DNA of 64,000 bases, from the IMG/VR virus record IMGVR_UViG_3300028844_007948, positions 32,001 to 96,000 of that record, one strand, 5' to 3'. A program made the position numbers and the translations under genes. Shown here in pieces: positions 3,151 to 64,000 of the stretch (position 1 is the stretch's first letter; each line of letters starts with the position of its first letter). The DNA comes from a virus. The notes below the pieces were generated by a model. The model was not told the origin of the DNA. It worked only from the letters and a program-made list of their open reading frames with translations, and searched no databases.

Positions 3151-4197
3151 ATGAATATTACACTAAAGAGAACCGACGAGCAAATCGAACTAGTCAAGGC
3201 TATGGCCTCCAAGGACAGAGCTGTTTCTTATGAAGCACAACAAGCTCTCGCTGCCTTTATCGGGCCTGTATTGGCTGAGGTAGTAGATAACGCTCCCACT
3301 TTAAGTAACCTGTTTTCCGCTTTTCAATTCGCTGCTGATGACAATCCAAGTATCCCTTTGGATCTTTATCATGATGTAACTGACGACGAGTATATCAAGG
3401 TTTACACTTCTAACACTGCTGGTGGTCTTCCTTCCAGTCATGTTACTCCCACCCATAGTGAGTTAAAGCTCGCTACTTACAGGTTGGAAAGTGCCATTGA
3501 CTTTGATAAGCGTTATGCATCACGTTCAAGACTTGATGTCGTGAGTAAGAGCATGTCTAGACTTGCTCAGGAAATTATGCTTCAACAAGAAGCTGCTTCC
3601 GCAAGCTTGATCATGGGCACCATCTCTGACAACGAGAACAAGTGCTATACCACGACTGAGGTTGGCGCCACTCTTGATATGGACGACTTTAATGCCCTTC
3701 TTACCAAGGCCAAAAGAAACAATCCTGCATGGAATGCTGGTACTCCTGAGCGTAGCCGTGGAATTACCGATCTTATTGTTTCTCCAGAGGTTGTTCAACA
3801 ATTGAGATCTTTTGCTTACAATCCAATTTCAACCACGGGTGATTTTATTCCTGCTAGCGATGCTACAAGAAACACCTTGTTCTCACAAGCTGGAATGACT
3901 GAGTTCTTTGGAATTTCCATCATGGAGATTTACGAGCTAGGACCAAACCAAAAATACCAACAAGTAGCTAAAAAGCTAATTGGCGGTCATGCTACAAATG
4001 ATTTCGCTCTTGCTCTTGACAGAAGTCGTGAGTCTATGCTTCGTGCAGTTGCTGTTGATGCTGAGTCAGGAACTTCCTTGACTGTTAATGCTGACGATCA
4101 GTACGTTACCAGACAAAAGAAGATCGGTTACTATACCGAACTTGAAGAAGGTCGTACTATCATCAACGATAGCGCAATCATCGGTTTGGGTATCTAA
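3151..4197 (+). CDS. Major capsid protein (HK97 fold)
   Basis: 348 aa, expected position, TDLIVSPEV and FFGISI P/A-domain-like motifs, strong terminator downstream. Confidence 0.8.
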   Translation: MNITLKRTDEQIELVKAMASKDRAVSYEAQQALAAFIGPVLAEVVDNAPTLSNLFSAFQFAADDNPSIPLDLYHDVTDDEYIKVYTSNTAGGLPSSHVTPTHSELKLATYRLESAIDFDKRYASRSRLDVVSKSMSRLAQEIMLQQEAASASLIMGTISDNENKCYTTTEVGATLDMDDFNALLTKAKRNNPAWNAGTPERSRGITDLIVSPEVVQQLRSFAYNPISTTGDFIPASDATRNTLFSQAGMTEFFGISIMEIYELGPNQKYQQVAKKLIGGHATNDFALALDRSRESMLRAVAVDAESGTSLTVNADDQYVTRQKKIGYYTELEEGRTIINDSAIIGLGI

Positions 4198-4220
4198 AAA
4201 TACTCAATTGAGTTTAGAAA

Positions 4221-4254
4221 ACGCGGTAGCTTTCGAGTTACCGCGTTTTTTTTT
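4221..4254 (+). terminator. Rho-independent terminator after MCP
   Basis: ACGCGGTAGCT-TTCG-AGTTACCGCGT: 11-bp stem (one GU pair), UUCG loop, then T9. Confidence 0.9.
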
Positions 4255-4325: not shown

Positions 4326-4718
4326 ATGCCTAGAAAAAAAACAACCACCACAAAGAAAAGAGTAAAGAAGGAAATAGAATTTGCAGACGGCAAAGTTGAA
4401 GACGAAAAACACGCTCTATCTAAAGACATAGAAGAAATTTTAATGCCATCGAAAAATCCTTTCGGAACAAACTCTCAGGAAGAATTAGATGAAAGCCTGG
4501 AGGGAATGAACCTCAGGCAAATGCAAGAACTTGCGGTAAAGGCTAGTGTATTTCCTTCTGGGAACAAAACCACTCTTAAGAGAAAAATTAAAAAAGAATT
4601 TTCAGTAAAATTTGGAACTAAAGATGGGTCTAGGAAGTACAACTTCCCAACAGAATCCCCGCTGGTAAAAGACGAACAAGTTGCAAAAAGCGTACTAGAA
4701 ATATTAAATAAAAGATGA
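4326..4718 (+). CDS. Hypothetical protein with SAP/HeH-like helix-extension-helix motif
   Basis: MNLRQMQELAVKASVFPSGNKTTLKRKI resembles SAP/Rho-N motifs. Basic N-terminus. Confidence 0.45.
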   Translation: MPRKKTTTTKKRVKKEIEFADGKVEDEKHALSKDIEEILMPSKNPFGTNSQEELDESLEGMNLRQMQELAVKASVFPSGNKTTLKRKIKKEFSVKFGTKDGSRKYNFPTESPLVKDEQVAKSVLEILNKR

Positions 4719-5233
4719 GCTATAGCTTTGACCATTCGGTCAATGAAATCGGCAACTTAGCATCAGGAATATACAAATTTGATTTCGACGAAAATAGTCA
4801 ATTTGTAAACCCTAGTTATCTTTCTGGTTGGTTGCAGAATAATATTGGCGAACTAAATGTTCTTACCCACACTAATTATAGTGGGGTGAATCCTGGCATG
4901 GGAAGCCAAGAACAAAGTATATATAGGCATATCTTTTTACGCGATTACTACAAGAAGTTGGGAAGAAAAGCTTTATTAGGGGTGAGTTATATTCCTTCAT
5001 CTCAATCAGGATCAGGAGAAGTTGTAACATCAGATTGGACAGAACTAAGAGAAGGAGATAGTGTAATTAAGAGGAAGGCTATGCTAGCAAGTCCTTCAGA
5101 AAAAATCACCACATCAAGGCAATACACCCAGCTTTCTAATGAATCAGCAAATGAATTAGAAAAATTATTATACAAGTATAATATATCAAAAGGCGGGCCA
5201 AGGCAGGTAGCAGGAAAAGACTCTCCTGCTTAA
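4715..5233 (+). CDS. Putative head-tail adaptor
   Basis: 172 aa, helical with a beta hairpin (WTELREGDSVIKR). Positioned after MCP. Confidence 0.5.
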   Translation: MSYSFDHSVNEIGNLASGIYKFDFDENSQFVNPSYLSGWLQNNIGELNVLTHTNYSGVNPGMGSQEQSIYRHIFLRDYYKKLGRKALLGVSYIPSSQSGSGEVVTSDWTELREGDSVIKRKAMLASPSEKITTSRQYTQLSNESANELEKLLYKYNISKGGPRQVAGKDSPA

Positions 5234-6219
5234 GAAAGATCCATAAGATCTTTCATGTTAAGGCTACCCCCTTTTTTTCTCGCAGCTTCAGAAAGTGAGC
5301 TTCCAGATTTAATGGAAGTTTTTTCGACTCCCATGTATTCGTAATCTTCTGCGGTTGCGCCAAAAACAGTAGAGGCTCCATCTTTATTTAAATGCTCTTT
5401 CATTTTCTCTCTACTTTTAGAGTTGCTTGAAAAATCTAATAATGCCGCTGGATCTTTTCTTATTTTTTCGGGGATATCTTGGTTGTTATCGAATATATTT
5501 TTAAAAACTCTACTGTAAGTTAGTATAGATAACTGGTTATTAGTTAAATCAATTGCAGACTTACCAAAAAAACTATGTGGGCCGTCAGCCATATACATAA
5601 ATGGAAAAAAGAATTCCTCTAAAATTATTTTTTGTATATTTTCCTCGCTGACAGATTTTACAACAGAATTATTTATTTCTGTTAGCTCTTTTATTTCACT
5701 GTAAGATAAGCTTGCAAAAAAATCATCAGACAAATATTTAGTTTTAAGATCTTTATCTTTGTAAAAACAATTTATGATAAAGTAATCATTTATTTGTTTG
5801 GAAGAATAACTTTCTGCAGTATTTCCAAGTATAGATTGCCTCTCAGACAATTTATTATTTAATTTTCCCTGCTCTTCATCGATTATTTTTTGATGAGCAT
5901 CTCTTTCTGATTTTAAATTTAAATTAGATTTTGTTTTTAATAAGTTATCTATAAAAATTTCTTGACCATCTATAAATGACTCATCTTTTTCTGACCAAAT
6001 ATCATTTTCTATAGCTTCCTCTAAGCATTTTTTCTCAGTTTGCAGACCTCTTCCTATAGCTTTCTTTAAGAAAAGGTCTTGCTTTTCATTGATGTCTATG
6101 TAATCGTTTGCATGGAGGTGCTTTACATAAACTTCCTCTTTTTTGTAATAAGATTTGCTATACCCTAGGCAAACATCTCTAAATATTTTTCTGTAGAAGT
6201 AATCGTCTTTCTCATACAT
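5230..6219 (-). CDS. Putative tail assembly chaperone-like protein (paralog of 6212..6973)
   Basis: Shares RGLxT, [ST]ExD and TA[ED]S...FY motifs with its neighbour. Helical. Confidence 0.4.
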   Translation of the reverse strand: MYEKDDYFYRKIFRDVCLGYSKSYYKKEEVYVKHLHANDYIDINEKQDLFLKKAIGRGLQTEKKCLEEAIENDIWSEKDESFIDGQEIFIDNLLKTKSNLNLKSERDAHQKIIDEEQGKLNNKLSERQSILGNTAESYSSKQINDYFIINCFYKDKDLKTKYLSDDFFASLSYSEIKELTEINNSVVKSVSEENIQKIILEEFFFPFMYMADGPHSFFGKSAIDLTNNQLSILTYSRVFKNIFDNNQDIPEKIRKDPAALLDFSSNSKSREKMKEHLNKDGASTVFGATAEDYEYMGVEKTSIKSGSSLSEAARKKGGSLNMKDLMDLS

Positions 6220-6973
6220 TTCCAGAGTCTATATCGTCATTCAAACTATCGAAATCTTCTTTTGACGCGTTAGCACTGAAATACCAAAAACTTAATACAG
6301 ATAAAAGTTTATCTTTAACAAGGTCAAAGATTTCATGGCCGTTTTCATCAATATCATAATATTGTTCTATTTTATCTTGAACTTCTTCTCCGTTAAAGAA
6401 TGGCTTAGCATCAAGATCTTCGTCTTCTTGATAAAAAGACAAATGGACTAAATACCACAATATAACTTTATTTTGAGCTTTGCTGTCTGCGGTATGATTA
6501 AAAAGCGAAGAGTAAGATGTTTCCATGTCTACTATATCCCTCCTCTTTTCTGCCATTTCACCTAAGAGGTTACTTAACTTTTTTTCATCCTTATCATCCT
6601 TTTTTGGCTTGGAGGAAAGCCTGCTGTATCTATTTTGGAGATCTCCAAGTTCGCTATACCTTCGAGTTAGAAGTTTGGCATCATCTTCTGTTAGAAGGCC
6701 TCCTGTGTCACTATATTTTTTAGCTAGCATTGCTTTTGTAAGAATGCCCCTCTTAATGCATTTACTCATCTCAATGCTATATTCAATGTCAGCTTCTTCT
6801 AAATCTCTTCTATTTGGCTCTTTCAATATAATTTTAACTGGTACTGGCTTCTTTTTGGTTTCCTCAACGGAGTATTCTTCCATCTTGCCAGTTTCTTTAT
6901 TCTTTCTTTTCTTTGTTACTGATTCTGTGACGTCTCTTTCGACATCAACACTGAAGCTATATATTTCTTTCAT
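6212..6973 (-). CDS. Putative tail assembly chaperone-like protein
   Basis: KIILKEPNRRDLEEA pattern resembles tail chaperone N-termini. Helical. Sits in the neck/tail region. Confidence 0.4.
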   Translation of the reverse strand: MKEIYSFSVDVERDVTESVTKKRKNKETGKMEEYSVEETKKKPVPVKIILKEPNRRDLEEADIEYSIEMSKCIKRGILTKAMLAKKYSDTGGLLTEDDAKLLTRRYSELGDLQNRYSRLSSKPKKDDKDEKKLSNLLGEMAEKRRDIVDMETSYSSLFNHTADSKAQNKVILWYLVHLSFYQEDEDLDAKPFFNGEEVQDKIEQYYDIDENGHEIFDLVKDKLLSVLSFWYFSANASKEDFDSLNDDIDSGNV

Positions 6974-6984
6974 ATTGATAGATG

Positions 6985-7290
6985 TTACTCGTAATAATTA
7001 TTGAATTTAAAATGCACTATGAATTTGTCAAGATCTTCATTTTGATTCCTTAAGGAATCGTTCCCCATATCTAATACTCTTTTTCTTAAGTATTGCATTT
7101 TCTTGAAATCAAAATAATTAGCTTGGTCAATCAGTGCGTGATATTTTTCAGGTAAAGAGATTTTTAATTTAGTAAAATGTATATTATGGTCTTCGTTCAA
7201 ATCTTCAAGTAGATGAAGGAAGCTTTTAAATAAACCTTTAACATGCTTTTCATATCTATCCTGAAGTATTTCCTTGTCTTTATCACTCAT
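6985..7290 (-). CDS. Hypothetical protein
   Basis: 101-aa ORF, first gene of the inverted block, phage-like codon usage. Confidence 0.6.
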   Translation of the reverse strand: MSDKDKEILQDRYEKHVKGLFKSFLHLLEDLNEDHNIHFTKLKISLPEKYHALIDQANYFDFKKMQYLRKRVLDMGNDSLRNQNEDLDKFIVHFKFNNYYE

Positions 7291-11260: not shown

Positions 11261-11290
11261 GTGTAATATTAGTTAAGGAATAAGGAAATG
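11261..11290 (+). promoter_or_regulatory. GTGTAA motif plus tandem AAGGAA ribosome-binding leader of TMP
   Basis: gtgtaatattagttaaggaataaggaaATG. Same architecture and length at 25885-25914. Confidence 0.5.
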
Positions 11291-14200
11291 CCTCTAAAAA
11301 TACCAACAATACAGGTCGGACTAGAAAAGTCTATACAAAAGGCTGTAAAAAATGTCAGCGCTAGAGGGGGCTTATATTTAAGCTTAAATGATAAAAATTT
11401 CACAAGACCACTAGGCAAAATAACTGGGTCTGTAAGTGAATTTAATAGATCCTTAGAGGCTTCAAATGCTAGAGTATTAGCTTTCGGAGCTTCTGTCGGA
11501 ATGATACAAGGTGTGCAAACTGCATTTAAGGCCTTGTTGCAAACCACCATACAGGTAGAAAAGCAATTAACGGAAATTAATATCGTCATGGGACTGACGA
11601 ATAGCCAATTAGATGATTTCTCAAAAGGATTATTTAAAGTAGCAAAAAATACTGCTCAATCTTTCTCTACTGTAGCTACTGCAGCCACAGAACTAGCAAG
11701 ACAAGGTTTAACAATGGAAGAAACCTTGAAAAGGACAAATGATGCTCTCATACTGACTAGGCTGACTGGATTAGACGCAGCTAGTGCGGTGAATGGTTTA
11801 ACTGCCGCATTAAATACATTTAATAAAGCTGGTCTAGATTCTACTCAAATTTTAAGTAAAATGGCTGCCGTAGACGTGCAGTTTGCTGTTAGCACAGAAG
11901 ATTTAATAGATGCTGTTTCTAGAGCTGGTGCTGTAGCTCAAGATGCAGGAGTTAGTTTTGATGAATTACTAGGTGCTGTTACTGCAGCTCAACAAATGAC
12001 AGCTAGAGGTGGTAAGGTTATCGGTAATAGTTTTAAAACTATTTTCACCCGTGTACAAAGATCTACCACGATTAGTAGGCTTGAGGAGCTTGGAATAGCC
12101 GTAAGAGATGTAGCGGGTAACACACTCCCAGCAATTAGAGTATTAGAAAACTTATCAGCCACTTATGATAAGCTAGCAGATACTACAAAAGCTGCTGTAG
12201 CTGAACAAGTTGGTGGAGTTTTCCAAATAAACATTTTAAAAGCTGCTATAAATGACCTTTCTTCATCAAATAGCATTCTAGCTAGAGCAACTCAAATATC
12301 TGCAAGTGCAAGTGATGAAGCATACAAAAAGAATGAAATATTAAATAGATCATTATCTGCATTATCATCACAAGCAGCAACGAGTATAACTGAATTATCT
12401 AATATAATTGGAGAGATTGGATTCTCGAATCAAATAAGAGATTATCTTACATTTATAAGAGATCAGGTATCAAGCATAAATGATTTTCTCGGTCAAAAAG
12501 AAGGGGAATCTGCTGGAGCTGATTTTGCCAAAGGGCTCATTAAAGGCATAGGTAATGTTATTAGTGGTCCAGGTTTACTATTAGCGGCTGGTGTTTTAAT
12601 AAAATTATTCGCAAAAACTTCTACATTTTTAGTGGGAAGTGCTAAAGAATTGATGGGTGTTGTTAGCGCTAGCCAAAGGCAAAAACAAGTTCAAGAATCA
12701 ATAGTAGCTGTATTAGGGGAAAATAGTAGTCTTCAAAAAAGAATATTAGCCCAAGAGGGAAACAGGGCGGCACAAGAGAAGACCATATTAACATTACTTC
12801 AGGCTCAGTCTAGAGAGCAGCAAAGAATAGCTGCTACAGCAAAAGCTGTTGGACCAGCTATACTAAGAGCTGGATTTAACACCTCTTTACAAAGAGGAGG
12901 GAAGATAGCTAGTAGCGGCTTAATCCCAAACTATGTCACCCCGAAAGAAAAAGAAATGGAAAAACAGGGAGCCAGGGACGGTGGATACACTCCTGGCACC
13001 GTTAAATCCATGGACATAAAAGGAAAAGGAAGAATAATATATAATACAGCGGAAAAAGTTAAAAAATTTTCAGGAATGTCTGAGCCAGCAATATTACCAC
13101 CTTGGAGAAGTAAGGCAGGAAGAAAGTACAAAAACACATTTGAAGAAACTCACGGATTCAACCCTTATGCTAATAAAGGAATGATTCCTAATTATTCAAA
13201 ATCTAGATCTAATATTACTTTTAAGGAGATGGGGGGAGGTCAAATTGGGGGCCCCCCAAGGCAGGTCTTATTTAAATCTACGGTTGGAGGGGAGAAGTTC
13301 ACAGATGCTCAAACAATGGAGATCGTAGACCCCAAAAACGGTGGCAAAATGGGACTGCAAGTTATTTTCACTGGAGACTCTCCCTCCGAAATGAGAGGAA
13401 AAGGATACGGAAGAGAGTTGTACGAATACATGGCGAAGTATGCCAAGAGGAATGGCTACGGAGGCTTATATGGAGATATGGGGACTTCCATATCAGCAAT
13501 GAGAGTTGTAGATAGCATAGCAAAAAGAAAAAGCTTTAAAGTTGAAAAAAATCCAGACTTGAAGTTCATAAAAGATGACTTCGAAGAAGAAGGAATCTGG
13601 GGGAGCGACGACTGGACATATAGATTGTCAAACAAAGGCTTAATCCCGAATTACGGAGCATTTTCTCATGATAAAAATTTATTAGGAAGCTTACTCGCTA
13701 ATGATTTCGCCAAAGATGGAAGGATAAAATATCTTGACGCTCTTAGTTATGTTGACGAAAAAGGTTTAACATCTATATTAAAAAGCTTCAATAAATATGG
13801 AGAGCATGATGGCTGGAAGGCTTCTTGGCCTGGAATGCCCGTCAATCAGTTAATGAAGAATTTCCCCAAATACAGTACTGGCGGAAAACCTTACGATAGT
13901 GGAGCCAAAGGGCTTTACAGTGGATTAACCCCAACAAGAATAAAAGAAATATTAGAGAAGCCTGAAATAACAAGGCAATTTTATAAATATATAACTGGAA
14001 AAACATCCTCAATAGATGTGGAGTCTGGCTTGACACCTCAAGAAAAAGATTATTTTAAATCTAATTTTGGGATGGTTCCTAAATTAAAACACATAGAGGA
14101 CGGTTTCGTTTCCAGTGGGGCGAATCAAAAAAAGAAAAATCTTAATGCACTAAGATATGACTTTCTTAAAGCAGGGCCTAAAGGTGGCAGCTCCACCATG

Positions 14201-17200
14201 AGCAAAATTAAAACTCAGTTCAGGGGAACTCTATTTAAAGACCCTAAAAGAAGAGCTAATCTTTTTAGGCAAAATAATGAATTAGCACCAGATCCTATAC
14301 TGCAATTACCTTATGACCCAGGCAGGAGGCATATTGACCCCAATATAAGAATGGCGCAGCCTGGTGACTACTTAAAAGCCCAGCAATTAAAGCTTGAACA
14401 AGAAATGATGGGGTCTCAATCTGGAATTCTAAGAGGATCCTCTTTTAGAGCTAGTGATATGGGTAGAATGAGGTCAGCACTGTCATTTAATACATCAGCC
14501 AGAGATTATCAAAATAAATTTTTAGTAAACGAATTCGAAGAGTTAATGAAAGGCCAAGAAGGAAAAAGAGATCCAATGTCTTTTTCTAAAGCCGAAAGAA
14601 GAATAAGCGGAAGATTAAAAGTAAATCCAAGAATTAGGAGTTTTTACGAAAATATGACAAGAGCCACTCGATCAAAATGGGGCTTTTCTGGAGGAATGAT
14701 TCCTAATTTTGGATTAAAAATAAATGCTGGAGCCATGAAAAGCATTGGACTTCAGTCTACATTAGGTCAAGCTAAAAGTAGGCAAGAAGGAGTTATAGGC
14801 ATGTCAGAGCTGGATAAAATCCTGCAAAGTAATTTATTTAAATCAATTAAATACCTCCCGCTAAAAAGCGACACTCCAATCATGATAAAAAATGCAAGGT
14901 ATGGAGTTCATAGCTTAAAGAAAGGAGCTCCCCCACCAAAAGGATTCAAAAGTTGGAAAGATTTTGACGAGAATAGCCCACTTGGTAGAACCAGAGTGGT
15001 TTATGCTAAGCCAAAAACTGAATCTGAAAAACCTTTTAAGAGGCTTAAGCTTGAAAGAATAGAAAGTATAAACCATCAAGGAAAAACCCTTACAGTTGAC
15101 CCTAATTTAGCTAACAACGGTTTAATTCCGAACTTTATTTTTAAGAAATTAAAAACTGTATCTCAGGCCGTAAAAACATTTAAAGAGGATACTGGGGCAT
15201 TTTCAGCTGGAACCAGAAATAACATTTGGAGTACTACTCAAAATAAAATCAAGCTGAGATCTAGTAATTACGATGATGTCAGGCAATTTGTTAATAGCAA
15301 GAGTTTTAGACTATTAGATCCAGCAGAACAAAAAAGAATAAAATCCGATCTGAAAGCTCAATCCGAATCATTGAACATGAATGATGTTACCAGGCCTTAT
15401 TTTCAGTATGATGATCCTGATTACCAAGGAGCAATTCATGCAAATAAAGGTTTGATACCAAATTACTCAAAGCTTTTTTCAGAAGGAGCGAAAAATGTTT
15501 TATCTAAAAACCCTCAGTATACTGGAGCTGTTCAAGAAGCAATTCAAAGAGAGGCTTCTTTTGGATTAACCCCCAAGGTCGTGGAAGCTCACTCATTAAA
15601 GAGCTCTAAGAATCCTGGTCTTGCCGTAGTAAACCAAGAGCAGGAATCTGGAAGTTTACAAAAAGCCAGAATTCTTCATGGAGGGTTGAACCCTAATCAA
15701 AAAACTTCAGCCGTTCCCAACTATGCAAAAACACAAGTTGATGTAACCAAAGTACTACAATTAAGAAAAGAATCTGTAAGAAACATAAATGATGTAGGTT
15801 TAAATTCAGTATCTAAATCTTTTGATAGAGCGGCTAATGTGATAGATAAGTTTTCAACAAGCGTCAAAAGCGCTCAATCTTACCTCGGCCAACAAGGTAC
15901 TGAATACGCAAAATCATCAGAGTTAATTAAAGAAGCTAATCTAAGAGAAAAAGCGAGGCTCGGAACTTTAGAAAAAGAGACTTCGGCTAGAAAAAAATAC
16001 ATGAGAGAGGTTCTTAGAAAGGACTCCCTAGCGAAACTTTCTTCACGATCTGGACCAGTAGGAGAATTGGCAACACAATTTATGGGCTCTAGTAATTTTG
16101 AAAAAGATTTAAAATTCAGAATGGGGGTAGCCAAGGAAGCTAATGACTTTGAAACATTAAAAGGTCTGAAAAAGTTTGACAAGGCAATAGACGAAAGTGC
16201 CAGAGGCATGTTTAATAATGCAACCACAAAAGCTAGTATATTAAATAGCCAACTCAGAGAGAGTACAAAAGACGGAAATAAACTAAAAAGATTTCAAGGG
16301 GCAGAAGGTTTTGGCAAAAGAGAAATGAGGAAATTTTTTAGTCAAAGCTTTCTTCAAGAAAGAGGCATCCAAACACTTGACAGTAAAGAGTCCATGAATG
16401 TTATGGCTTCAATGGGAGAAAGGGGAGAAAAAGCATTTCAAGATTATGTAAAATCCCAAGGCGTAATGTCTAGCAATAAAACTTTAGCAAGAGCAGGTCT
16501 TAGAACTGGAGATTTCTCATCATTGCTTGGAGGAAATGATGGAAAAAACTTCATAAAACAATTAGAAAAGTACCAAAGAATGGTTGACGGCGGTGCTAAG
16601 GGCAAGGGCACAGCCAGAAGAGAGCTTATGAGAGAGGCTGCCAGAATTGGTGCAGATTCAGCTTCTTCAGAGAAACTCCAAAGCATGGTGCTTTCAACTC
16701 AAAAACAAGTTAAAGATGATGCTCCTAAAGGAGCACCGCAATCAGCAAGAGATAGAATATCAGGAGGAAGAATTTCTGGAGCTCTTGGATCCTTCCAGTC
16801 TGGAATGTCTGGATCTGGATTAAGATCTCAAGGGTTTATGGGACTCGTTGGGAATAGAGCAGGGCAAGGAATCAATAGATTTGGAACTGGAGCGAAAAAC
16901 TTTATGAAGGGTGGGTTTGGTGCAGCTGGTGGGCAAATGGGATTAGGCCTCTCTATAGCCGCCCCAATGTTAGCGGGCATGGTGGCAAATAAAACCCCAA
17001 GGGAAGATAGAGCCGTATTACAAAATGGACAATTTAATGTTCAGGGAACTGGAGCAGATACGGCATCTAGTACATTGATGGGTGTTGGTATGGGAGCTAT
17101 ATTTGGTGCTCCAGGCGCTATTGTAGGAGGTGTTATAGGATTTGTACAGTCTCTTACGAAGGCAACTCTAACTATAGATGAACAAATAAGAGTAAGAGAA

Positions 17201-20200
17201 AAAGAAATAGCCATCATAGGTCAAAATGTTCAAGCAGCCCAATCTCTTCAGAATTTATCATCAGCTAGGGCTGAAGCTTTTGCCGTAGGAGACTCTGATA
17301 GAATCGCAGAAATTGATACAGCAATGAATAGAGCTTTGGCTGGGGTCAATGATAAAAAAACATTAACAGCTTTAGCTGCATCAGGGGGAGATTCAGATGC
17401 TTTGTCAAAAATACAAAGACAACTACAAGATCAAATGACAAACGCTGTTAGTGTTCAGAATTTTGGAGTAGCTCTAAAGAATTCCGACCAACAAAAAGCA
17501 GCAAAAAATGCTGGAGTTGCAATGGGAGGAATGATAGCCCAAGCAATAAGAAATGAAAATGTAGATGAATCTACTGCACTAGATATATTGAGAAATATAC
17601 AGACTAGTACGGCTCAAAAAGAAAAAAGTGGAATGCTTGACACTAAAAGCCTAAATGCTTTAAGGAAAAAAGCCTCAGGAGGTCAAGAGTTAACCAGTGG
17701 ACTAGGTATGGCAGGAGGTCTTGCTGGAGGACTGATGGCTGGAGGAGCTGCCTTGAGTATGTCTGGAGTAGGCATGCCGCTTGGGTTGGCAATGGCGGCT
17801 GCAGGAGCAGGAATAGGCATATTAAGCGGAAGAGCTATTGAAAGTGGAGCAGCTAAAAGTGATTTAGAAAAACAACAAAAATTAGGATTAGATGAAATTA
17901 ACGAACTATCAAAACTAGTAGATGCTGGAGCGATGACAGAGACTGCAATGAATCAATTAGTTGCAGCTTTTAGGGAGGGAGAAATAAGCATGGGAGATAT
18001 AGCTAAAGAAGCAGAATCTGCCGTTGTAGAGTTTCAAAAAATTAAAAAAGCATCTGATAGAGCAAGCTCTGCGTTATTTAATATAGATCAATCATTCAAA
18101 AGAACTATTGGCAAAATGGTTGTTGATTTAGAAGTTAACAAGATAAGATCAGCAGCTGAATCTAACGCAAGAAAATCGAATGTTAATTTCACATCTCAAT
18201 TCATGTCGCCAATTAGTGCTAGTGATTTCTTAGCAAGAGAACAATCTAAAATATTAGCTTCGGATGCTCAAGGCAGAGTAGGACAATTTCAAAGAGAAAC
18301 AGATATTAATTTCCTTAGAGGAGTTCAATCAAAATCAAAAAGTTTAAATTTCGGCGGGCCACAAATGGAGTTCGTAAGAAAGACGGTCGAAGATCAAGGA
18401 GTTGGCTCGATAGAGTCAATGATCAGAAGAAGGGAAATGTCTGGAGTAATGAATTTAAACCTAAATACAAAAAATCTTGACGATATATTTGAAAAAGTAG
18501 GAGTAAAAGGTGGGGTCGATGCTTTCAATAAAGATAGCAAAATAACAATGCCAGAAAACTTGAACGAACTGAAAGACCTTCTTGGCACTGGAGATAAAGA
18601 TGAACAAAAAAGAATAATGGATGAGCTTGTCGCAAACCTACCTAAGGCAAGACAAGAAGGATCCATGCAAACTAAATTTACAAGAGCTCTTGAAGGAGCA
18701 GATGTTCAAACTTTAACAGAAATAATAGATTTAAGGAAAGAGCAGTTTAGAATTGTTCAGGAGCAAATACTGGCTGAAAGAAAAAATTTAAGCATACAAA
18801 TAGCTCAACAAAAAATACAAACACAAATACAGGCGAAGCTTGAAAGCTTAAGGCAGGAATCTTCAAATAGAAGTATGGCCTTAGACACTAATATGATAGG
18901 TGTGAGAGGGAGGGCTGATACAAACAGATCACTCACTGGTTTTGAAGCTCAATCTCCTATTTTTAGAGGAATGTCTTCTGACGCGGAAGAGTCAAAAAGA
19001 CAGACTGGTCTAAGAAAAAGAGTTTTTGATGAAGATATAAAAGTTAGAAAAGCTGAAGCTTTAAATATGTTAAAAAAAGAGGCTGTCAGACTTTTATCTG
19101 AGAAAAATTTAGTTGATGCATTAAATGATTTAAAATCATCAATAGAAAAAGAAACTGATTTTGCAGCTACAGAAGGAAATCAAGTAGGCTCACAAAAAGG
19201 GCAACAGATTCCAGTAAAGACTGAGCCGTCATCCGCAGCCAGTTCGGCATCTGGAGCGGGAGCTGGAAAAAGTCCAGCTGTAAAAATGGGAAAACAAATG
19301 TCTTCGTTTAAAACGAGCGGAAACAATGAGGAAGGCTCAAAGAGGATAAAGGAAATAGGAAAAAAGATAGATCAAAATAATATAGAAATAAAAACTCAAG
19401 AGAGTAAGCTGAACACTGAAAGTAGTGTAGAAGACACACTAGCAACAAAACTTAAAAAATATAAAGGTGTATTAAAACAACTTGAAAACTTAAATAACTT
19501 GCCTGAAAACAAAACCTCTTTCAGTAAGCCTGGCAATCTATTCAAACGTAACGAACGAGATGATTCAAGAGAAAGCGCAAAAAGAAAACTTCAAGATTTG
19601 GATCTTAATCAATTTTCAAAAGTTACAGGAACTCGCCTTGATGTTTTTGATGGATTTGATTCAGGAGATTCTGGGGGGAGCTATGTACAAACTAGCAGGG
19701 ATGCAACTGATGCCGAAATGATCAAATCAATGACAGATCTTGTTGAAAAAACAGAATCCCAACTACAAGAGACTAGAAGTAAAAAAGGATCTACAGAGAG
19801 TGCTATAGAAAAAGCTAAATCAGAAATCCAAGAACAAAAAAAGCAGATCGAAGAAATAGAAAAGCAAATGGCAGAAGGTGTTGTTGAGCTTTCTGACACT
19901 CTTAAAGGCCAAAATATAAGTTTAAAAAACATCAATGTAGAAAAGACAGCAAATTTAACTAAAGATTTATTTAAGGCTGATTCAATAGAAGGACTTACCG
20001 AAACTCTAAATAAGAATTTAGAAGATATTAAGGCTAATGACCCTTCTGGACAAATAGCTCTTCAGCTTCAAGGATGGGGAGAGTTGGTTAACAATGTTGG
20101 AGCTAGTCTAGATGATGCCGTTCGAGCATTTAACGTAGAAGAGGCTAAGAGAGCTCAAGAAGAATTTAATAGAAATTTGACATTTTCAAATTATTCAAGC

Positions 20201-22018
20201 GGAGCATTTGAGCAGCTTAATGCCATTAATCAAGGACAGAAAACCATTCGCGCTGGTGTTGGAGTAGGAATTATGGATAAAGTTGTTGACCAGGAAAGAA
20301 GGCAACTAAATTTTGACACAATAAACCAAGATCCAACATCAACACCACTAGAAAGAGCAAGAGGAAAAGCAGAACTACAATCATTCACCATAGGAACAAA
20401 AGATCAAAGAGTTCAAATGGGGAGCCTCAGGGACGAACAAGCCCTTCAAAATAGAGATTTAATTGATGCTGAAAGAGACAGATTAAATGCAGTATCCGCA
20501 GGAAAAGCAGCTAAGACTGACGAAGCAAAGTTTGCCGCAAAAAGTGTGGAAGAATCAGCTGTTGCTAGAATAGCAGAATTAAAAGGTACAATAGAAAACC
20601 TTGACAAAAGTATGCTAGACTTAGCTCATCAAATGGAGAGAACTACCCCAAGAGATAAAGGGTTCGTCTCTGAATTTAAACAAAATACATCGATGGGGCT
20701 TGAGTTAGGTTTTGCTGAAATAGAAGCTCAATCTGAGCAAATATATACAAGACTAGGACAAGACTTGCCAATGGTTTTCAGAGATGGTCTTGTAGACGCA
20801 ATGCAAGCAGCCTTAGACGGAAGTCAAAAATTAGGAGATTCCTTTGAGCAAATAGGAATGTCTTTATTACAAAACATACAGAAAGCATTCCTGACAAGTG
20901 CTTCAAACAGAATAACTGGTGCCGTAGGATCTGTGTTTGGGCTAGACGGTTATAATACTGGGGGATATGTAAATGGTGGAAGTGGAATAAAAGATGATGT
21001 CCCAGCGATGTTAATGGGGGGAGAGTATGTAATCAAAAGGAGTGCTGTACAAAAATACGGAGTAAACTTTTTAGAAAACTTAAATCAAGGAAGTATACAA
21101 GGGTTTGCTGGAGGAGGAGCCGTTCTTAATGTAGGATCTCCAATGGCAGCAGAAAGAGAGTCTTATGTAGACAAAAGTAAATATGGAAATGTAACTAGAT
21201 ATAAAACAAAACAAGCTGGTATAGGAATCAATAGTCAGCTTACTGGATATGCAATAGCAAATGATAGAAGTATACAGAAATACTTTAGAGATCAAGAGAC
21301 TCAATTTAATCAGAATTTAAATACAAAAAAACAAGAAGAAGCAAGACAGAAAAATAAAGATTACGAGAAGAAGGCAAAGAAAAGAAGCTTTTGGAATATG
21401 GTTATAGGAATAGCTGGATCCGCTTTATTGGGGAAAGCTGTTCAATGGGGTACTGATAAGTTCAAGCAAACCGATTTTTACAAAAATAGAGCTGCAGCTA
21501 AGGCTGAAAGGTCTATGGCGGATAATGGATATGTTCAAGTAAGAGGTAAAAGCATTCAGCGATTATACCCAAAACCTTCAGACCAATCTGGTGTCAGGAA
21601 AATGATTAGCAATGCCCACAGGGATGGAGGCTGGAAAGCTGCATCTACAATAATGCGGGATAATAATATAAGAGGTACTGTTGACGAAACTGGGGTACAA
21701 CTAAATAAAGGCGGCGCAGTACCAGCAAGGCTTACTGGAGGGGAATATGTAATGAGTCCAGGAGCTGTTAAAACTTATGGCTCTTCATTGATGCAGAATT
21801 TAAACAATGGCTCCATACAAACTGGCGGTCAATCTGGTCAATCTGGTCAAGTAAGTAATGTTTCCCATGGAGATGTGAATATAAGTATAAATGTAGACAA
21901 TTCTGGAGGAGCTTCTTCTGGAGGAGGTTTAAATTCACCAGAGTTTGCGTCAAAAGTCAAGAGTGCAGTAATGAATATAATTTCACAAGAAAAAAGAGTT
22001 GGAGGGAGTTTGAGGTAA
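11288..22018 (+). CDS. Tape measure protein (3576 aa) with internal motif-delimited cargo array
   Basis: N-terminal TP901-type TMP core (ELARQG, GNSFKTIFTR), long helical/coiled-coil regions, Gly-rich hydrophobic segments, two C-terminal VPAxLxGGEYV motifs. Located between tube and tip genes. Confidence 0.9.
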   Translation: MPLKIPTIQVGLEKSIQKAVKNVSARGGLYLSLNDKNFTRPLGKITGSVSEFNRSLEASNARVLAFGASVGMIQGVQTAFKALLQTTIQVEKQLTEINIVMGLTNSQLDDFSKGLFKVAKNTAQSFSTVATAATELARQGLTMEETLKRTNDALILTRLTGLDAASAVNGLTAALNTFNKAGLDSTQILSKMAAVDVQFAVSTEDLIDAVSRAGAVAQDAGVSFDELLGAVTAAQQMTARGGKVIGNSFKTIFTRVQRSTTISRLEELGIAVRDVAGNTLPAIRVLENLSATYDKLADTTKAAVAEQVGGVFQINILKAAINDLSSSNSILARATQISASASDEAYKKNEILNRSLSALSSQAATSITELSNIIGEIGFSNQIRDYLTFIRDQVSSINDFLGQKEGESAGADFAKGLIKGIGNVISGPGLLLAAGVLIKLFAKTSTFLVGSAKELMGVVSASQRQKQVQESIVAVLGENSSLQKRILAQEGNRAAQEKTILTLLQAQSREQQRIAATAKAVGPAILRAGFNTSLQRGGKIASSGLIPNYVTPKEKEMEKQGARDGGYTPGTVKSMDIKGKGRIIYNTAEKVKKFSGMSEPAILPPWRSKAGRKYKNTFEETHGFNPYANKGMIPNYSKSRSNITFKEMGGGQIGGPPRQVLFKSTVGGEKFTDAQTMEIVDPKNGGKMGLQVIFTGDSPSEMRGKGYGRELYEYMAKYAKRNGYGGLYGDMGTSISAMRVVDSIAKRKSFKVEKNPDLKFIKDDFEEEGIWGSDDWTYRLSNKGLIPNYGAFSHDKNLLGSLLANDFAKDGRIKYLDALSYVDEKGLTSILKSFNKYGEHDGWKASWPGMPVNQLMKNFPKYSTGGKPYDSGAKGLYSGLTPTRIKEILEKPEITRQFYKYITGKTSSIDVESGLTPQEKDYFKSNFGMVPKLKHIEDGFVSSGANQKKKNLNALRYDFLKAGPKGGSSTMSKIKTQFRGTLFKDPKRRANLFRQNNELAPDPILQLPYDPGRRHIDPNIRMAQPGDYLKAQQLKLEQEMMGSQSGILRGSSFRASDMGRMRSALSFNTSARDYQNKFLVNEFEELMKGQEGKRDPMSFSKAERRISGRLKVNPRIRSFYENMTRATRSKWGFSGGMIPNFGLKINAGAMKSIGLQSTLGQAKSRQEGVIGMSELDKILQSNLFKSIKYLPLKSDTPIMIKNARYGVHSLKKGAPPPKGFKSWKDFDENSPLGRTRVVYAKPKTESEKPFKRLKLERIESINHQGKTLTVDPNLANNGLIPNFIFKKLKTVSQAVKTFKEDTGAFSAGTRNNIWSTTQNKIKLRSSNYDDVRQFVNSKSFRLLDPAEQKRIKSDLKAQSESLNMNDVTRPYFQYDDPDYQGAIHANKGLIPNYSKLFSEGAKNVLSKNPQYTGAVQEAIQREASFGLTPKVVEAHSLKSSKNPGLAVVNQEQESGSLQKARILHGGLNPNQKTSAVPNYAKTQVDVTKVLQLRKESVRNINDVGLNSVSKSFDRAANVIDKFSTSVKSAQSYLGQQGTEYAKSSELIKEANLREKARLGTLEKETSARKKYMREVLRKDSLAKLSSRSGPVGELATQFMGSSNFEKDLKFRMGVAKEANDFETLKGLKKFDKAIDESARGMFNNATTKASILNSQLRESTKDGNKLKRFQGAEGFGKREMRKFFSQSFLQERGIQTLDSKESMNVMASMGERGEKAFQDYVKSQGVMSSNKTLARAGLRTGDFSSLLGGNDGKNFIKQLEKYQRMVDGGAKGKGTARRELMREAARIGADSASSEKLQSMVLSTQKQVKDDAPKGAPQSARDRISGGRISGALGSFQSGMSGSGLRSQGFMGLVGNRAGQGINRFGTGAKNFMKGGFGAAGGQMGLGLSIAAPMLAGMVANKTPREDRAVLQNGQFNVQGTGADTASSTLMGVGMGAIFGAPGAIVGGVIGFVQSLTKATLTIDEQIRVREKEIAIIGQNVQAAQSLQNLSSARAEAFAVGDSDRIAEIDTAMNRALAGVNDKKTLTALAASGGDSDALSKIQRQLQDQMTNAVSVQNFGVALKNSDQQKAAKNAGVAMGGMIAQAIRNENVDESTALDILRNIQTSTAQKEKSGMLDTKSLNALRKKASGGQELTSGLGMAGGLAGGLMAGGAALSMSGVGMPLGLAMAAAGAGIGILSGRAIESGAAKSDLEKQQKLGLDEINELSKLVDAGAMTETAMNQLVAAFREGEISMGDIAKEAESAVVEFQKIKKASDRASSALFNIDQSFKRTIGKMVVDLEVNKIRSAAESNARKSNVNFTSQFMSPISASDFLAREQSKILASDAQGRVGQFQRETDINFLRGVQSKSKSLNFGGPQMEFVRKTVEDQGVGSIESMIRRREMSGVMNLNLNTKNLDDIFEKVGVKGGVDAFNKDSKITMPENLNELKDLLGTGDKDEQKRIMDELVANLPKARQEGSMQTKFTRALEGADVQTLTEIIDLRKEQFRIVQEQILAERKNLSIQIAQQKIQTQIQAKLESLRQESSNRSMALDTNMIGVRGRADTNRSLTGFEAQSPIFRGMSSDAEESKRQTGLRKRVFDEDIKVRKAEALNMLKKEAVRLLSEKNLVDALNDLKSSIEKETDFAATEGNQVGSQKGQQIPVKTEPSSAASSASGAGAGKSPAVKMGKQMSSFKTSGNNEEGSKRIKEIGKKIDQNNIEIKTQESKLNTESSVEDTLATKLKKYKGVLKQLENLNNLPENKTSFSKPGNLFKRNERDDSRESAKRKLQDLDLNQFSKVTGTRLDVFDGFDSGDSGGSYVQTSRDATDAEMIKSMTDLVEKTESQLQETRSKKGSTESAIEKAKSEIQEQKKQIEEIEKQMAEGVVELSDTLKGQNISLKNINVEKTANLTKDLFKADSIEGLTETLNKNLEDIKANDPSGQIALQLQGWGELVNNVGASLDDAVRAFNVEEAKRAQEEFNRNLTFSNYSSGAFEQLNAINQGQKTIRAGVGVGIMDKVVDQERRQLNFDTINQDPTSTPLERARGKAELQSFTIGTKDQRVQMGSLRDEQALQNRDLIDAERDRLNAVSAGKAAKTDEAKFAAKSVEESAVARIAELKGTIENLDKSMLDLAHQMERTTPRDKGFVSEFKQNTSMGLELGFAEIEAQSEQIYTRLGQDLPMVFRDGLVDAMQAALDGSQKLGDSFEQIGMSLLQNIQKAFLTSASNRITGAVGSVFGLDGYNTGGYVNGGSGIKDDVPAMLMGGEYVIKRSAVQKYGVNFLENLNQGSIQGFAGGGAVLNVGSPMAAERESYVDKSKYGNVTRYKTKQAGIGINSQLTGYAIANDRSIQKYFRDQETQFNQNLNTKKQEEARQKNKDYEKKAKKRSFWNMVIGIAGSALLGKAVQWGTDKFKQTDFYKNRAAAKAERSMADNGYVQVRGKSIQRLYPKPSDQSGVRKMISNAHRDGGWKAASTIMRDNNIRGTVDETGVQLNKGGAVPARLTGGEYVMSPGAVKTYGSSLMQNLNNGSIQTGGQSGQSGQVSNVSHGDVNISINVDNSGGASSGGGLNSPEFASKVKSAVMNIISQEKRVGGSLR
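12908..15724 (+). repeat. Eight dispersed peptide repeats [AS]NxG[LM]IPN[YF] in TMP
   Basis: ASSGLIPNY 12908, ANKGMIPNY 13169, SNKGLIPNY 13628, SNFGMVPKL 14060 (degenerate), FSGGMIPNF 14684, ANNGLIPNF 15110, ANKGLIPNY 15440, KTSAVPNY 15701 (degenerate). Confidence 0.9.
13196..13627 (+). other. GNAT acetyltransferase domain embedded in TMP
   Basis: Acetyl-CoA binding motif A MRGKGYGRELY, followed by helix, LYGD and SISAMRVV. Exactly bounded by two delimiter repeats. Confidence 0.75.
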
Positions 22019-25520: not shown

Positions 25521-25901
25521 ATGCAAGAAGAAATTTTAAATAATATAAAAAAAATATCGGAAGCTAATCCTGAAGAGGAAGTGTGCGGCTTCTGGGTCTC
25601 TTGCAAGAAGCAACCAATAATTCAATGCAAAAATGTAGCACTAGATCGGGAAAACAACTTTGAAATATCTGCGGAAGAATATATAAACACATTTAATACA
25701 AAAAATATAATTCTACTATTTCATTCTCACCCAAAAGACACCGAAAGATTTTCAAAAGAAGATTTGTATATAAGTCAGCAATTAGAGATGCCAATATTAG
25801 TATACAGTAATGCAACAAAAAAATTTAATTTTTATAAGCCAGATTCAATAAAAAAAAATAAAACACTAAATACTATAGAAAAAAGTGTAGTTACATACTA
25901 A
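25521..25901 (+). CDS. Lambda gpK-like JAB/MPN metalloprotease (no NlpC/P60 domain)
   Basis: EVCG...CKNVA...FHSHP...FSKED JAMM motif. Only 126 aa. Confidence 0.85.
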   Translation: MQEEILNNIKKISEANPEEEVCGFWVSCKKQPIIQCKNVALDRENNFEISAEEYINTFNTKNIILLFHSHPKDTERFSKEDLYISQQLEMPILVYSNATKKFNFYKPDSIKKNKTLNTIEKSVVTY

Positions 25902-25914
25902 GGAAAAGGAAATG
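25885..25914 (+). promoter_or_regulatory. GTGTA motif plus tandem AAGGAA leader of gpI-like gene
   Basis: gtgtagttacatactaaggaaaaggaaATG, same 30-nt layout as the TMP leader. Confidence 0.45.
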
Positions 25915-26625
25915 AAAATTATTCTGCACGGACATATAGGAACAAAATTTGGCAAAGAATGGGATTTAAGTGTAAAGTCTCCAAATGAAGGTCTCAGGGC
26001 TATAGATGCTAATACGGGTGGATTCTTTTCTTATTTGGGGAGTAAAGAGAATGAAAATTTATATTTTAGGATATACAGGGATAAGAATTCTATAGGAAAT
26101 CATGAAGAACTCGGACTTGAGTCGAGCAATACAAATACTGTACATTTTTTTCCTATAATTAAAGGGTCCTCCGAAAGGTCAAGAGAGGCCAATAGAATGA
26201 TGGGATATGGAGCACTTGGCCTGGGTGTATCTTGGGGTCTGGATTACTTAGGAGCACAAATAGGCGGAACATTTGGTGCAATTCTGGGTTGGGTTGCTGA
26301 TATAGGTTATGAAATAAGTGCCTCCATGATGATACAAGGAGCAATGATGCATTTAACAAAAGATCCTCCCGACCCTCCTAATCATGAAGATGCTCAAATA
26401 GCATCAAAATCAACTACATCTTATACTTTTTCTAGACCTCTAAATAATACTACCCAGGGTGCTGTTGTTCCAGTTGGTTATGGGAGATTAAGAATAGGTA
26501 GTCATGTAATATCTTCTCATTTGATGAACAGTAGACTAGCAGCATTTAATCAAGTAAGAAATTCGACAGAAGATGATAATGGAAATTTAGTAGGAGCTGT
26601 CAATGTTGATCACTATACACTATAA
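25912..26625 (+). CDS. Lambda gpI-like tail assembly protein (ubiquitin-like N-domain)
   Basis: IILHGHIGTKFG...SPNEGLRAI...HFFPIIKGS, a hydrophobic segment, then SYTFS...NTTQGAVVPVGYGRLRIGSHVIS. Confidence 0.9.
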   Translation: MKIILHGHIGTKFGKEWDLSVKSPNEGLRAIDANTGGFFSYLGSKENENLYFRIYRDKNSIGNHEELGLESSNTNTVHFFPIIKGSSERSREANRMMGYGALGLGVSWGLDYLGAQIGGTFGAILGWVADIGYEISASMMIQGAMMHLTKDPPDPPNHEDAQIASKSTTSYTFSRPLNNTTQGAVVPVGYGRLRIGSHVISSHLMNSRLAAFNQVRNSTEDDNGNLVGAVNVDHYTL

Positions 26626-39431: not shown

Positions 39432-40610
39432 TTAACAACAATCGTTGTTTCCACAAAAGGATTGGGATGTAGGGGTTTGAGAATTATTAGCTAATTGAGT
39501 TTGCCCTTCATATGTTGGACCTTGACTTCCATCATTAGAACATGTATTACCACAATTACCTCCTGTATTTGAAGCAGTGTGACCACTTCTACCTGGGAAA
39601 TAAAACCTCTGAGTTTTTGTAGGTAAATACGGGTTGGGCAACGGAATTAAAAAAGAGTTATATCCTGGATGTTGGGCTAACCTATTTTTCATAGCCTTGG
39701 ATAACAGGCCTTTATTTGGTTTCAGTTCTGAATTTTTATAGAAAAAGTTGGCTGGATTTTGATATAAAAGAGATGATATTGATTTCATATCTAAAGATCT
39801 TCCATGAGCATAAAAAACATTCTCTTCTTTAACAAAAGACCAAACTTCAGTTTGAACTTTTTTCTTTTGCCCGTTTATTGTTTTTGTTTGCTTTCTATTG
39901 GCTGAAGTATCTACATTGGATAACGATTCTACATTTTCAGCATATTCCGACAAGTACTCGCTAATATTCTGTCTGTTAGATTGGACGGTATCACCTAATC
40001 TAGCCCCAATTCTTTTCCCCTCATTAGCGCTTATTAATTGCCCTTCAATTGGATTGTCATATATAATCTCGCTTGCAAGCTTTCCATTTTTAGGATAATA
40101 GATTCTGAAAGATGTGTTTATGGGATCTCCTCTGTAAAAAGAATGAGTGCAAGTATTAAAAACATAAATATCTTTATCGCTCATCATTTCGCAAAGAATT
40201 TCCACGAAAACCACTTCTCCATTTTGAATTTTTTTTACATCTAATATTGGAAAATTTGCATCTGTATATAAGTCTCCATCCTCACCTTTCCAGCTTGCTT
40301 CAGCATTACTGGAATACTTTACTGAATTTTTGAAATTACTATGAACTGAAATTATTGTCCAAGATACTGAAACTGGTTTAAAATTTAATGCATTGAACCT
40401 TGGTATAGAACAGGCAAAATTAGCTGTAGTTCCATTTTCATTAGTTACTGTTTTTGTTACTGTCGAATCTAGATTTAAATAGGGAGTATATATATCAGTA
40501 TATATATCTATTTTTTTTAATTCCTCATTCTGTATATTAACATATTCTTCTCTTGAAAGAGCTGCTGCAGCTTTCTTAACTTCGTCTATATCTACAAATT
40601 CATCACTCAT
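39432..40610 (-). CDS. Hypothetical protein with Cys-rich C-terminus (likely start ATG 40610)
   Basis: Long ORF coupled to the upstream minus-strand gene. Ends GGNCGNTCS...FCGNNDCC. Confidence 0.55.
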   Translation of the reverse strand: MSDEFVDIDEVKKAAAALSREEYVNIQNEELKKIDIYTDIYTPYLNLDSTVTKTVTNENGTTANFACSIPRFNALNFKPVSVSWTIISVHSNFKNSVKYSSNAEASWKGEDGDLYTDANFPILDVKKIQNGEVVFVEILCEMMSDKDIYVFNTCTHSFYRGDPINTSFRIYYPKNGKLASEIIYDNPIEGQLISANEGKRIGARLGDTVQSNRQNISEYLSEYAENVESLSNVDTSANRKQTKTINGQKKKVQTEVWSFVKEENVFYAHGRSLDMKSISSLLYQNPANFFYKNSELKPNKGLLSKAMKNRLAQHPGYNSFLIPLPNPYLPTKTQRFYFPGRSGHTASNTGGNCGNTCSNDGSQGPTYEGQTQLANNSQTPTSQSFCGNNDCC

Positions 40611-40611
40611 T

Positions 40612-43002: not shown

Positions 43003-43009
43003 CAAATAT

Positions 43010-51574: not shown

Positions 51575-52468
51575 ATGGAGGAAGGTAAGGTATGCTTTAT
51601 AGACGATTCTGTTTCTGGTGTAGGAGGTACAACATTGACCCTAGATGCTATAGTTGAGCCGAAAAAAGAATTCGTTCAATTTATAAGCACCGATCAATTT
51701 AGTCTCAAAGATGTTTTTTCTGGGTTTGAGGTCTTTATTTTAGGAAACCTAACTAGGTTTACCAAGAACTCTCTTGATGCATTAATTTTATTAATGGAAT
51801 CAAAACGGTTCTGCAAAATTGAATTTGATTACGGGTATTGCGAATTCAGAGGTTCTATTCCTCATAAATTAATAAAAGGCGAAGATTGTCAATGCCCATT
51901 TGGGAGCACTGGGAATAAAATATTATCTATGATTTACTCTTTGATAAAAGAAAATTGCCTCCACACTTTCTACATGTCAGAATCTCAGCTCAACATCCAT
52001 TCAGAAAAATTAGAATGGATCGACTCAGATAAGAAGTCAGTGCTTTCATCTTGCTTTACTGAAGACAATATGTTAAAGTTCCAATCATTGAAACCTAAAC
52101 CTAAAAACAATAAGTATGCAATCATAGATGGTCAAGGAGGATGGCACACACAAGCAAAAGGAATCAAGCAAAGCATAGATCACGCTAATAAAAAAGAACT
52201 GGACTTTGATTTAATAAAAACTGAAACTCACAATGAAATGCTTAACTTGCTATCGGAATACAAGGGGTTAATATCACTCCCCATAATAGAGGACACTTGT
52301 CCCAGGATAACCATAGAAGCTAGATATATGGGTTTAGATGTTATTACAAATGAAAACTCGCAACACATTACTGAAGATTGGTGGAAGTCTGACGACGAAA
52401 CAGCCTTTAACTTCACTAAAAACAGGCCAAAATATTTTTGGGAGACAATAAAATGTTTAAAATCTTAA
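51575..52468 (+). CDS. Divergent GT-B glycosyltransferase
   Basis: GVGGTTLT N-loop and KG...LPIIEDTCPRITIEARYMGLDVITN GT4-like signature. Confidence 0.6.
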   Translation: MEEGKVCFIDDSVSGVGGTTLTLDAIVEPKKEFVQFISTDQFSLKDVFSGFEVFILGNLTRFTKNSLDALILLMESKRFCKIEFDYGYCEFRGSIPHKLIKGEDCQCPFGSTGNKILSMIYSLIKENCLHTFYMSESQLNIHSEKLEWIDSDKKSVLSSCFTEDNMLKFQSLKPKPKNNKYAIIDGQGGWHTQAKGIKQSIDHANKKELDFDLIKTETHNEMLNLLSEYKGLISLPIIEDTCPRITIEARYMGLDVITNENSQHITEDWWKSDDETAFNFTKNRPKYFWETIKCLKS

Positions 52469-57358: not shown

Positions 57359-57359
57359 T

Positions 57360-63347: not shown

Positions 63348-63353
63348 TATATC

Positions 63354-63986: not shown

Positions 63987-64000
63987 CTAAATCAAAAGCG

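Follow-up and report, generated by a model that had tools for sequence, protein, structure and literature searches.

Exchangeable modules between copies of a delimiter peptide in a phage tape measure protein, a candidate polyprotein injector

Tape measure proteins (TMPs) are usually treated as the rulers of phage tails and as DNA channels. Here we ask whether the TMP encoded in a 64,000-nucleotide stretch of virus record IMGVR_UViG_3300028844_007948 (positions 32,001 to 96,000; hereafter the window) may in addition be a carrier of proteins. The window is part of a 163,424-base record of an uncultured marine phage, matches to which were found in marine and viral metagenomes; RNA-labelled runs, whose contigs are of doubtful type, were left out. 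The TMP gene (11288..22018; window positions and the plus strand are meant unless stated otherwise) encodes 3,576 residues, none of them cysteine. The protein has the features of a siphophage TMP, namely a PF10145 (TP901 family) domain at residues 118-310, great length and a position ahead of lambda-like tail-tip genes, and its N-terminal part is matched by PHROG tape-measure families. An earlier reading of the window, made from the sequence only, had proposed that eight copies of a short peptide divide this protein into seven segments of exchangeable cargo.

A variable module set between two fixed brackets

All eight of the quoted peptides (ASSGLIPNY, ANKGMIPNY, SNKGLIPNY, SNFGMVPKL, FSGGMIPNF, ANNGLIPNF, ANKGLIPNY and KTSAVPNY) stand at the claimed positions, with the glycine of copies 1 to 7 at residues 544, 631, 784, 928, 1136, 1278 and 1388 and the end of copy 8 at nucleotide 15724. 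However, copy 4 (GMVPKL; 14060..14086) is degenerate and does not serve as a linker. In homologues, the segments on either side of it form a single module of ~340 residues, and in an AlphaFold model of residues 535-1490 it lies in a confident strand (predicted local distance difference test, pLDDT, ~84), whereas the other seven copies fall in stretches with pLDDT below 50. We therefore treat copy 4 as part of a folded module and count seven delimiters and six modules, in place of eight delimiters and seven segments. The delimiters, which are predicted to be disordered, are copies 1 (12908..12934), 2 (13169..13195), 3 (13628..13654), 5 (14684..14710), 6 (15110..15136) and 7 (15440..15466), each located from sequence and model, and copy 8 (15701..15724), located from sequence, which has no glycine and retains Val-Pro-Asn-Tyr.

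To gauge chance occurrence, we applied a profile built from homologue motifs, at a threshold of 12 bits, to the other open reading frames and to shuffled versions of the TMP. Six copies in this TMP exceed 12 bits, compared with 0.02 per shuffled TMP. No copy above this threshold was found in the remaining open reading frames of the 163-kb genome, in agreement with the earlier reading, which had not found the motif in other proteins of the window. The same reading held the peptide to be under selection; across ~330 copies the motif shows a codon usage near that of the background while the peptide is conserved, and selection therefore acts on the peptide.

We collected homologous TMPs from IMG/VR, metagenomes and a protein collection, which gave 161 non-redundant proteins. 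The motif is present in 2-23 copies in 159 of these, with the first copy at a median position of residue 543. Its consensus is [YF]-A-x-G-[FLHY]-[IV]-P-N-[FY]-A, in which conservation of the asparagine is 96-99% and that of the proline 100%, the latter an upper bound because proline is partly in the detection rule. The 840 inter-motif modules, of ~70-360 residues, form 173 clusters, which are arranged in 107 architectures; 63 pairs of module clusters are found in both orders. The first and last modules recur in 108 and 132 of 158 TMPs, respectively. A variable module set thus lies between two fixed brackets and is joined by the delimiter peptide.

Related phages acquire, lose, swap, reorder and duplicate these modules through recombination at the motif-coding DNA. 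Homology breaks at the motif and trees of modules conflict with trees of the TMP core, so that the cassette proves exchangeable as foreseen; collinear, unswapped segments, the pattern named beforehand as contrary to this view, are clearly not what the homologues show. When two TMPs have one module in common and differ in the next, they are 15-33% identical up to the motif on the common side but 5-10%, the background level, beginning 1-2 residues past it. Two of the modules described below, one related to GNAT acetyltransferases and the other WYL_2-like, illustrate the exchange. Homologue L001 is 90% identical to the window TMP in the core and 63% identical in the GNAT module, while its GNAT module is 94% identical to that of L016; L016 and P0011 are 93% identical in the core, 97% in the GNAT module and 40% in the WYL-like module. 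In addition, a contig from an independent run of another sample matches the end of the window GNAT module at 130 of 136 bases, has its own copy of the motif at delimiter 3 and then continues into different sequence. Seventeen motif-to-motif spacers of 20 residues or fewer look like footprints of recombination at the motif. In L014 (11630-16585), two near-identical copies of one module are present, and a diverged WYL-like module comes after each of them, an arrangement that reads as a probable recent duplication or exchange at the delimiters.

These patterns raise the question of whether the motif is anything more than a recombination scar, with the modules as length filler or selfish passengers that have no function in infection. 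Motif copies share 14-21 of 27 nucleotides, sufficient for microhomology, micro-duplications and whole-module duplications occur, and cassettes range from about 20 to 2,670 residues, all of which would fit such an origin. However, proline and asparagine are fixed in the peptide although synonymous codons are free, an observation that also rules out a fixed DNA recombination site, and the acetyl-CoA motif of the GNAT module and other catalytic-type motifs are retained across diverged copies. We therefore regard a mere scar as very unlikely.

Folds and relatives of the modules

The seven segments had all been taken for cargo. Four cargo modules emerge from our analysis, and the first and last segments are instead the conserved brackets. 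The first bracket (residues 550-627; 12935..13168) is a small predicted alpha/beta unit, of which the last (residues 1394-1471; 15467..15700) is possibly a paralogue; with the motifs removed, hhalign aligns the two at an E-value of 0.04 only.

The cargo module at residues 637-780 (13196..13627) has a GNAT acetyltransferase fold with a predicted acetyl-CoA motif. Foldseek matches it to GNAT structures with probability 1.0 and a root-mean-square deviation of 3.4-5 over ~105 columns, at an E-value of only 4e-3, and the acetyl-CoA-binding motif A (R-G-x-G-Y-G) is kept in all 13 copies. In line with the sequence-only reading, which placed the ends of the domain at delimiters, an Atlas GNAT aligns to residues 635-767, from delimiter 2 to ~14 residues before delimiter 3. 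The GC content of this module is 41.8% overall and 42.5% at third codon positions, compared with 21-32% at third positions elsewhere in the gene, which suggests a more recent arrival. A search for free-standing close relatives returned TMP fragments and one generic GNAT only.

The module at residues 1142-1274 (14711..15109) resembles the SH3/Sm barrel of WYL_2, as judged by structure (TMt 0.73) and by a profile that finds free proteins of ~100 residues at E-values of ~1e-4, and one of these proteins exceeds the cut-off of WYL_2 (PF10902); Pfam gave no direct match to the module itself. One apparently free-standing protein, P0141 (98 residues), lies close to the TMP version (E-value 7e-20), lacks the motif and is a possible donor or escapee. 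With few exceptions, near relatives of the GNAT and WYL-like modules are themselves parts of TMPs, free WYL_2 genes being distant, and the modules therefore appear to belong to a common stock that has long resided in TMPs. The folds of both modules can be recognised and lie between delimiters, in line with the expectation that segments fold independently, and the motif linkers are of low confidence in two structural models. The other two cargo modules are the ~340-residue unit of unassigned fold (13655..14683), which joins segments 3 and 4 and is delimited from homologues and the model, and a mostly helical unit of ~100 residues with no assigned function (15137..15439), which has 26 relatives in the TMP set. 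Atlas feature searches with the WYL-like and 340-residue modules were weak or empty.

Cargo families in the homologues include GNAT, ART-PolyVal, SNase, PGDYG, reprolysin-like zincin, ParB-like, kinase-like, HAD-like and P-loop types. Across the cassettes Pfam gave few matches and PADLOC a single weak match, to mad3. The commonest layout, found outside this window, has four motifs and one inner module of ~250 residues with a PD-(D/E)XK-like residue pattern. In these minimal cassettes E...D...(D/E)xK is kept and the secondary structure is compatible with an alpha-beta-beta-beta core; Foldseek and VIA searches with a 496-residue model of a minimal cassette gave zero fold matches for this assignment.

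The origin of the delimiter may lie within TMPs themselves. Intermediate motif forms border the WYL-like module in distant TMPs, and in two TMPs motif-fenced copies of the brackets occur in the C-terminal half (P0114, residues 3044-3125 and 4371-4467; P0108, residues 2880-2960 and 4156-4252), from which we suggest that the motif may descend from an [FY]AxGG element that TMPs commonly have near the C terminus. Both of these proteins lack the usual C-terminal unit. In the window TMP this unit, a [FY]xxGG ... GE[YF]V element of the common TMP type, lies at 20951..21142, with a second near 21700, and two internal [FY]xGG units of the TMP of PDB 8zdo resemble it. A comparison of the brackets with the unit by hhalign showed no similarity.

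Passage through the tail and the role of the delimiter

The composition of the modules suggests passage through the tail. They contain 5 cysteines in 130,837 residues (2 in 33,219 non-redundant residues), similar to the rest of the TMP, while the median for other proteins of the genome is 1.7%, and 94% of inner modules carry a net positive charge. Hydropathy alone predicts a hydrophobic segment at residues 420-440 (12545..12607), ~120 residues N-terminal of the cassette, and a comparable segment precedes the cassette in 71% of homologues. Enzymes that require acetyl-CoA, NAD or ATP would need to refold in the cytoplasm to act. We envisage that the modules are packed in extended form in the tail tube, like the remainder of the TMP, and exit together with it when the phage infects, that the TMP is held in the envelope by the flanking hydrophobic segments, and that the basic, cofactor-dependent modules refold on the cytoplasmic side, where they would modify host proteins or nucleic acids ahead of phage gene expression. 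A precedent for the route is lambda gpH*, a TMP that serves as a trans-envelope channel (PMC12617516). The tail probably delivers ready-made proteins into the host.

Alternatively, the cassette could be excised in the producing cell while the tail is being assembled, and act there or be discarded, in which case it would be a co-expression device and not injected cargo. Folded domains of 100-340 residues are a poor fit for a tail lumen a few nanometres wide. Moreover, cutting of lambda gpH takes place as the tail assembles, with a possible loss of half of the gpHC copies (PMC12617516). However, a purge of cysteine from 173 unrelated module clusters would have no obvious cause if these stayed in the cytoplasm, and free-standing genes would be a simpler route to the same job. 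Excision in the producing cell is accordingly an improbable account of the cassette.

If the modules are injected, the delimiter could be an endoprotease site that frees them, with some protease cutting it either in the maturing tail or after entry. We favour this role, to which we give about even odds, because the motif is near-invariant at every joint and because the lambda and T5 TMPs offer precedents for cleavage. In its full form, the proposal is that the TMP is a true polyprotein injector: the Pro-Asn-aromatic site would be cut, up to ~20 effectors would be released into the host, and the same site would double as the place where recombination joins modules from a common stock of more than 170, mostly of no known family, in widespread aquatic phages of 140-205 kb. 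We put the probability of this reading at roughly 0.4. For the window TMP, the predicted fragments would have masses of 9.8, 17, 40, 16, 13 and 9 kDa. As a speculation, such cutting would leave most of the pieces with an N-terminal Phe, Tyr or Leu, residues that act as N-degrons in bacteria.

The main rival is that the cargo is delivered but stays tethered, as beads on a membrane-anchored TMP. The motif would then be a binding or hinge signal, recognised without cutting, that serves a tail assembly chaperone, assists threading or prevents neighbouring domains from misfolding together. The evidence for exchange and for tail passage fits this scheme equally well, and the virion RNA polymerase (vRNAP) of N4 is packaged without processing (PMC5512222). 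However, a plain hinge needs no near-invariant Pro-Asn-aromatic at up to 23 joints, and docking of the motif onto the bracket modules was not predicted in two models. We consider tethering possible, although doubtful.

Several observations weigh against the polyprotein injector, some of them in favour of tethering. The vRNAP of P23-45 is proposed to be active while fused to its TMP (PMC10770324), and distant TMPs hold the WYL-like module between eroded motifs in which Pro-Asn-Phe is lost. Both structural models are of modest confidence (mean pLDDT 57 and 64). Cysteine is absent from the whole TMP and from two further virion-related proteins, and it is also sparse in free relatives of the WYL_2 type (3 in ~770 residues). 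Finally, the protease candidates that we examined yielded no processor. No co-conserved protease emerged among these candidates: the head proteins are without the motif, S8 subtilase is present in only three of seven complete genomes, and HEXXH modules, the zincins that might act from within the cassette, occur in 12 of 158 TMPs and not in this one.

The sequence-only reading had named the prohead protease (817) and the JAB protease (25521) as possible processors, and neither gained support. The motif was not found in the prohead protease, capsid, portal, gpI-like or gpJ proteins. The JAB gene (25521..25901), which encodes an HSH-type active-site motif and is present in six of the seven complete genomes, belongs to the lambda-like tail-tip genes that follow the TMP gene, comprising two PHROG minor tail proteins, the JAB protease, a protein that we read as gpI-like from its sequence and position, and a 2,875-residue Phage-tail_3 protein. 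JAB as the processor lacks support, as it occupies the usual lambda gpK slot beside the gpI-like gene and as the motif is best conserved at Pro-Asn-aromatic and not at a terminal glycine; its expected substrate is presumably the ubiquitin-like domain of the gpI-like protein.

The surroundings of these genes hold further features. The presumed prohead protease-scaffold protein (817-2436) and the gpI-like protein (25912-26625) have no cysteine. Genes on the opposite strand interrupt the structural region at 5230-7290 and 39432-43005 (minus strand), and a Pfam scan of those at 5230, 6212, 39432 and 40612 gave zero matches. From 51575 to 64000 and beyond runs a long gene cluster that, read from its sequence, resembles glycosyltransferases and sugar-nucleotide enzymes. 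Outside the window, genome G000 encodes the S8 subtilase (15249-16457, minus strand), which is found in 4 of 12 related records, and an 805-residue protein (127290-129707, plus strand) whose N terminus resembles a ClpA/ClpC-type chaperone. None of the annotated phages searched matched. Three GTDB matches are contigs in metagenome-assembled genome bins labelled Neomarinimicrobiota and Halobacteriovorax, which we do not accept as evidence of the host.

Comparison with known systems

Modularity in this TMP family has good support, and specialists on phage tails would find it surprising. It suggests a plug-in bay for proteins that are present from the onset of infection, before gene expression. 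As module boundaries can be read by the delimiter rule, the family offers a library of ~170 domains, candidates for roles in host takeover or counter-defence, each of which could be cloned and screened singly. The delimiter is also a specific candidate cleavage site, which bears on the old question of the place and mechanism of TMP cleavage. If the injector proposal is true, the tails of these phages are devices for protein delivery that come with a processing code of their own. Full-text literature, mostly without subscription papers, held no description of the motif or of a TMP with shuffled modules and a repeated delimiter, which is no proof of novelty.

Interchangeable effector domains that lie between conserved ends and are released at conserved junctions are known from MARTX toxins and viral polyproteins. 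The likeness is an analogy only; there is no homology, the TMP has no built-in cysteine protease and cleavage here is putative.

Cleaved TMPs include T5 pb2 and lambda gpH, which yields gpH* and gpHC (PMC12617516). Lambda gpH is cut once, close to its C terminus, and is not known to contain an enzyme, whereas the present family has up to 23 internal, repeated joints, at which cleavage is putative, and swappable cargo. Catalytic domains built into TMPs are likewise known, from the vRNAP fusion gp96 of Thermus phage P23-45 (PMC10770324) and the peptidoglycan hydrolase motif of mycobacteriophage TM4 (PMC1796659), both used at infection. Those TMPs have one or a few fixed domains and no repeated delimiter is described for them in the papers cited, whereas the present family draws on more than 170 module clusters that are shuffled among its members.

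A close parallel is with the polyvalent proteins of phages and conjugative elements, for which injection together with the DNA, and possibly processing, has been predicted (Iyer et al. 2017, PMC5512222). That paper does not mention tape measure proteins. Polyvalent proteins combine disparate enzymatic domains, among them GNAT, ART-PolyVal, kinases, zincin peptidases and nucleases, in one mosaic polypeptide. Disparate biochemistry is also present here, with GNAT and WYL_2-like modules in the window TMP and ART-PolyVal, SNase, PGDYG and zincin in homologues, and the architecture of the TMP family is similarly mosaic and rapidly reshuffled. The differences are that the carrier is a TMP, that the joints are one fixed peptide, that two fixed brackets enclose the modules and that the zincin metallopeptidase, often a hub or processing domain of polyvalent proteins, is not family-wide (12 of 158 homologues, with no HEXXH here). 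By analogy, the cassette TMP would function as phage polyvalent proteins do, with a TMP as the backbone.

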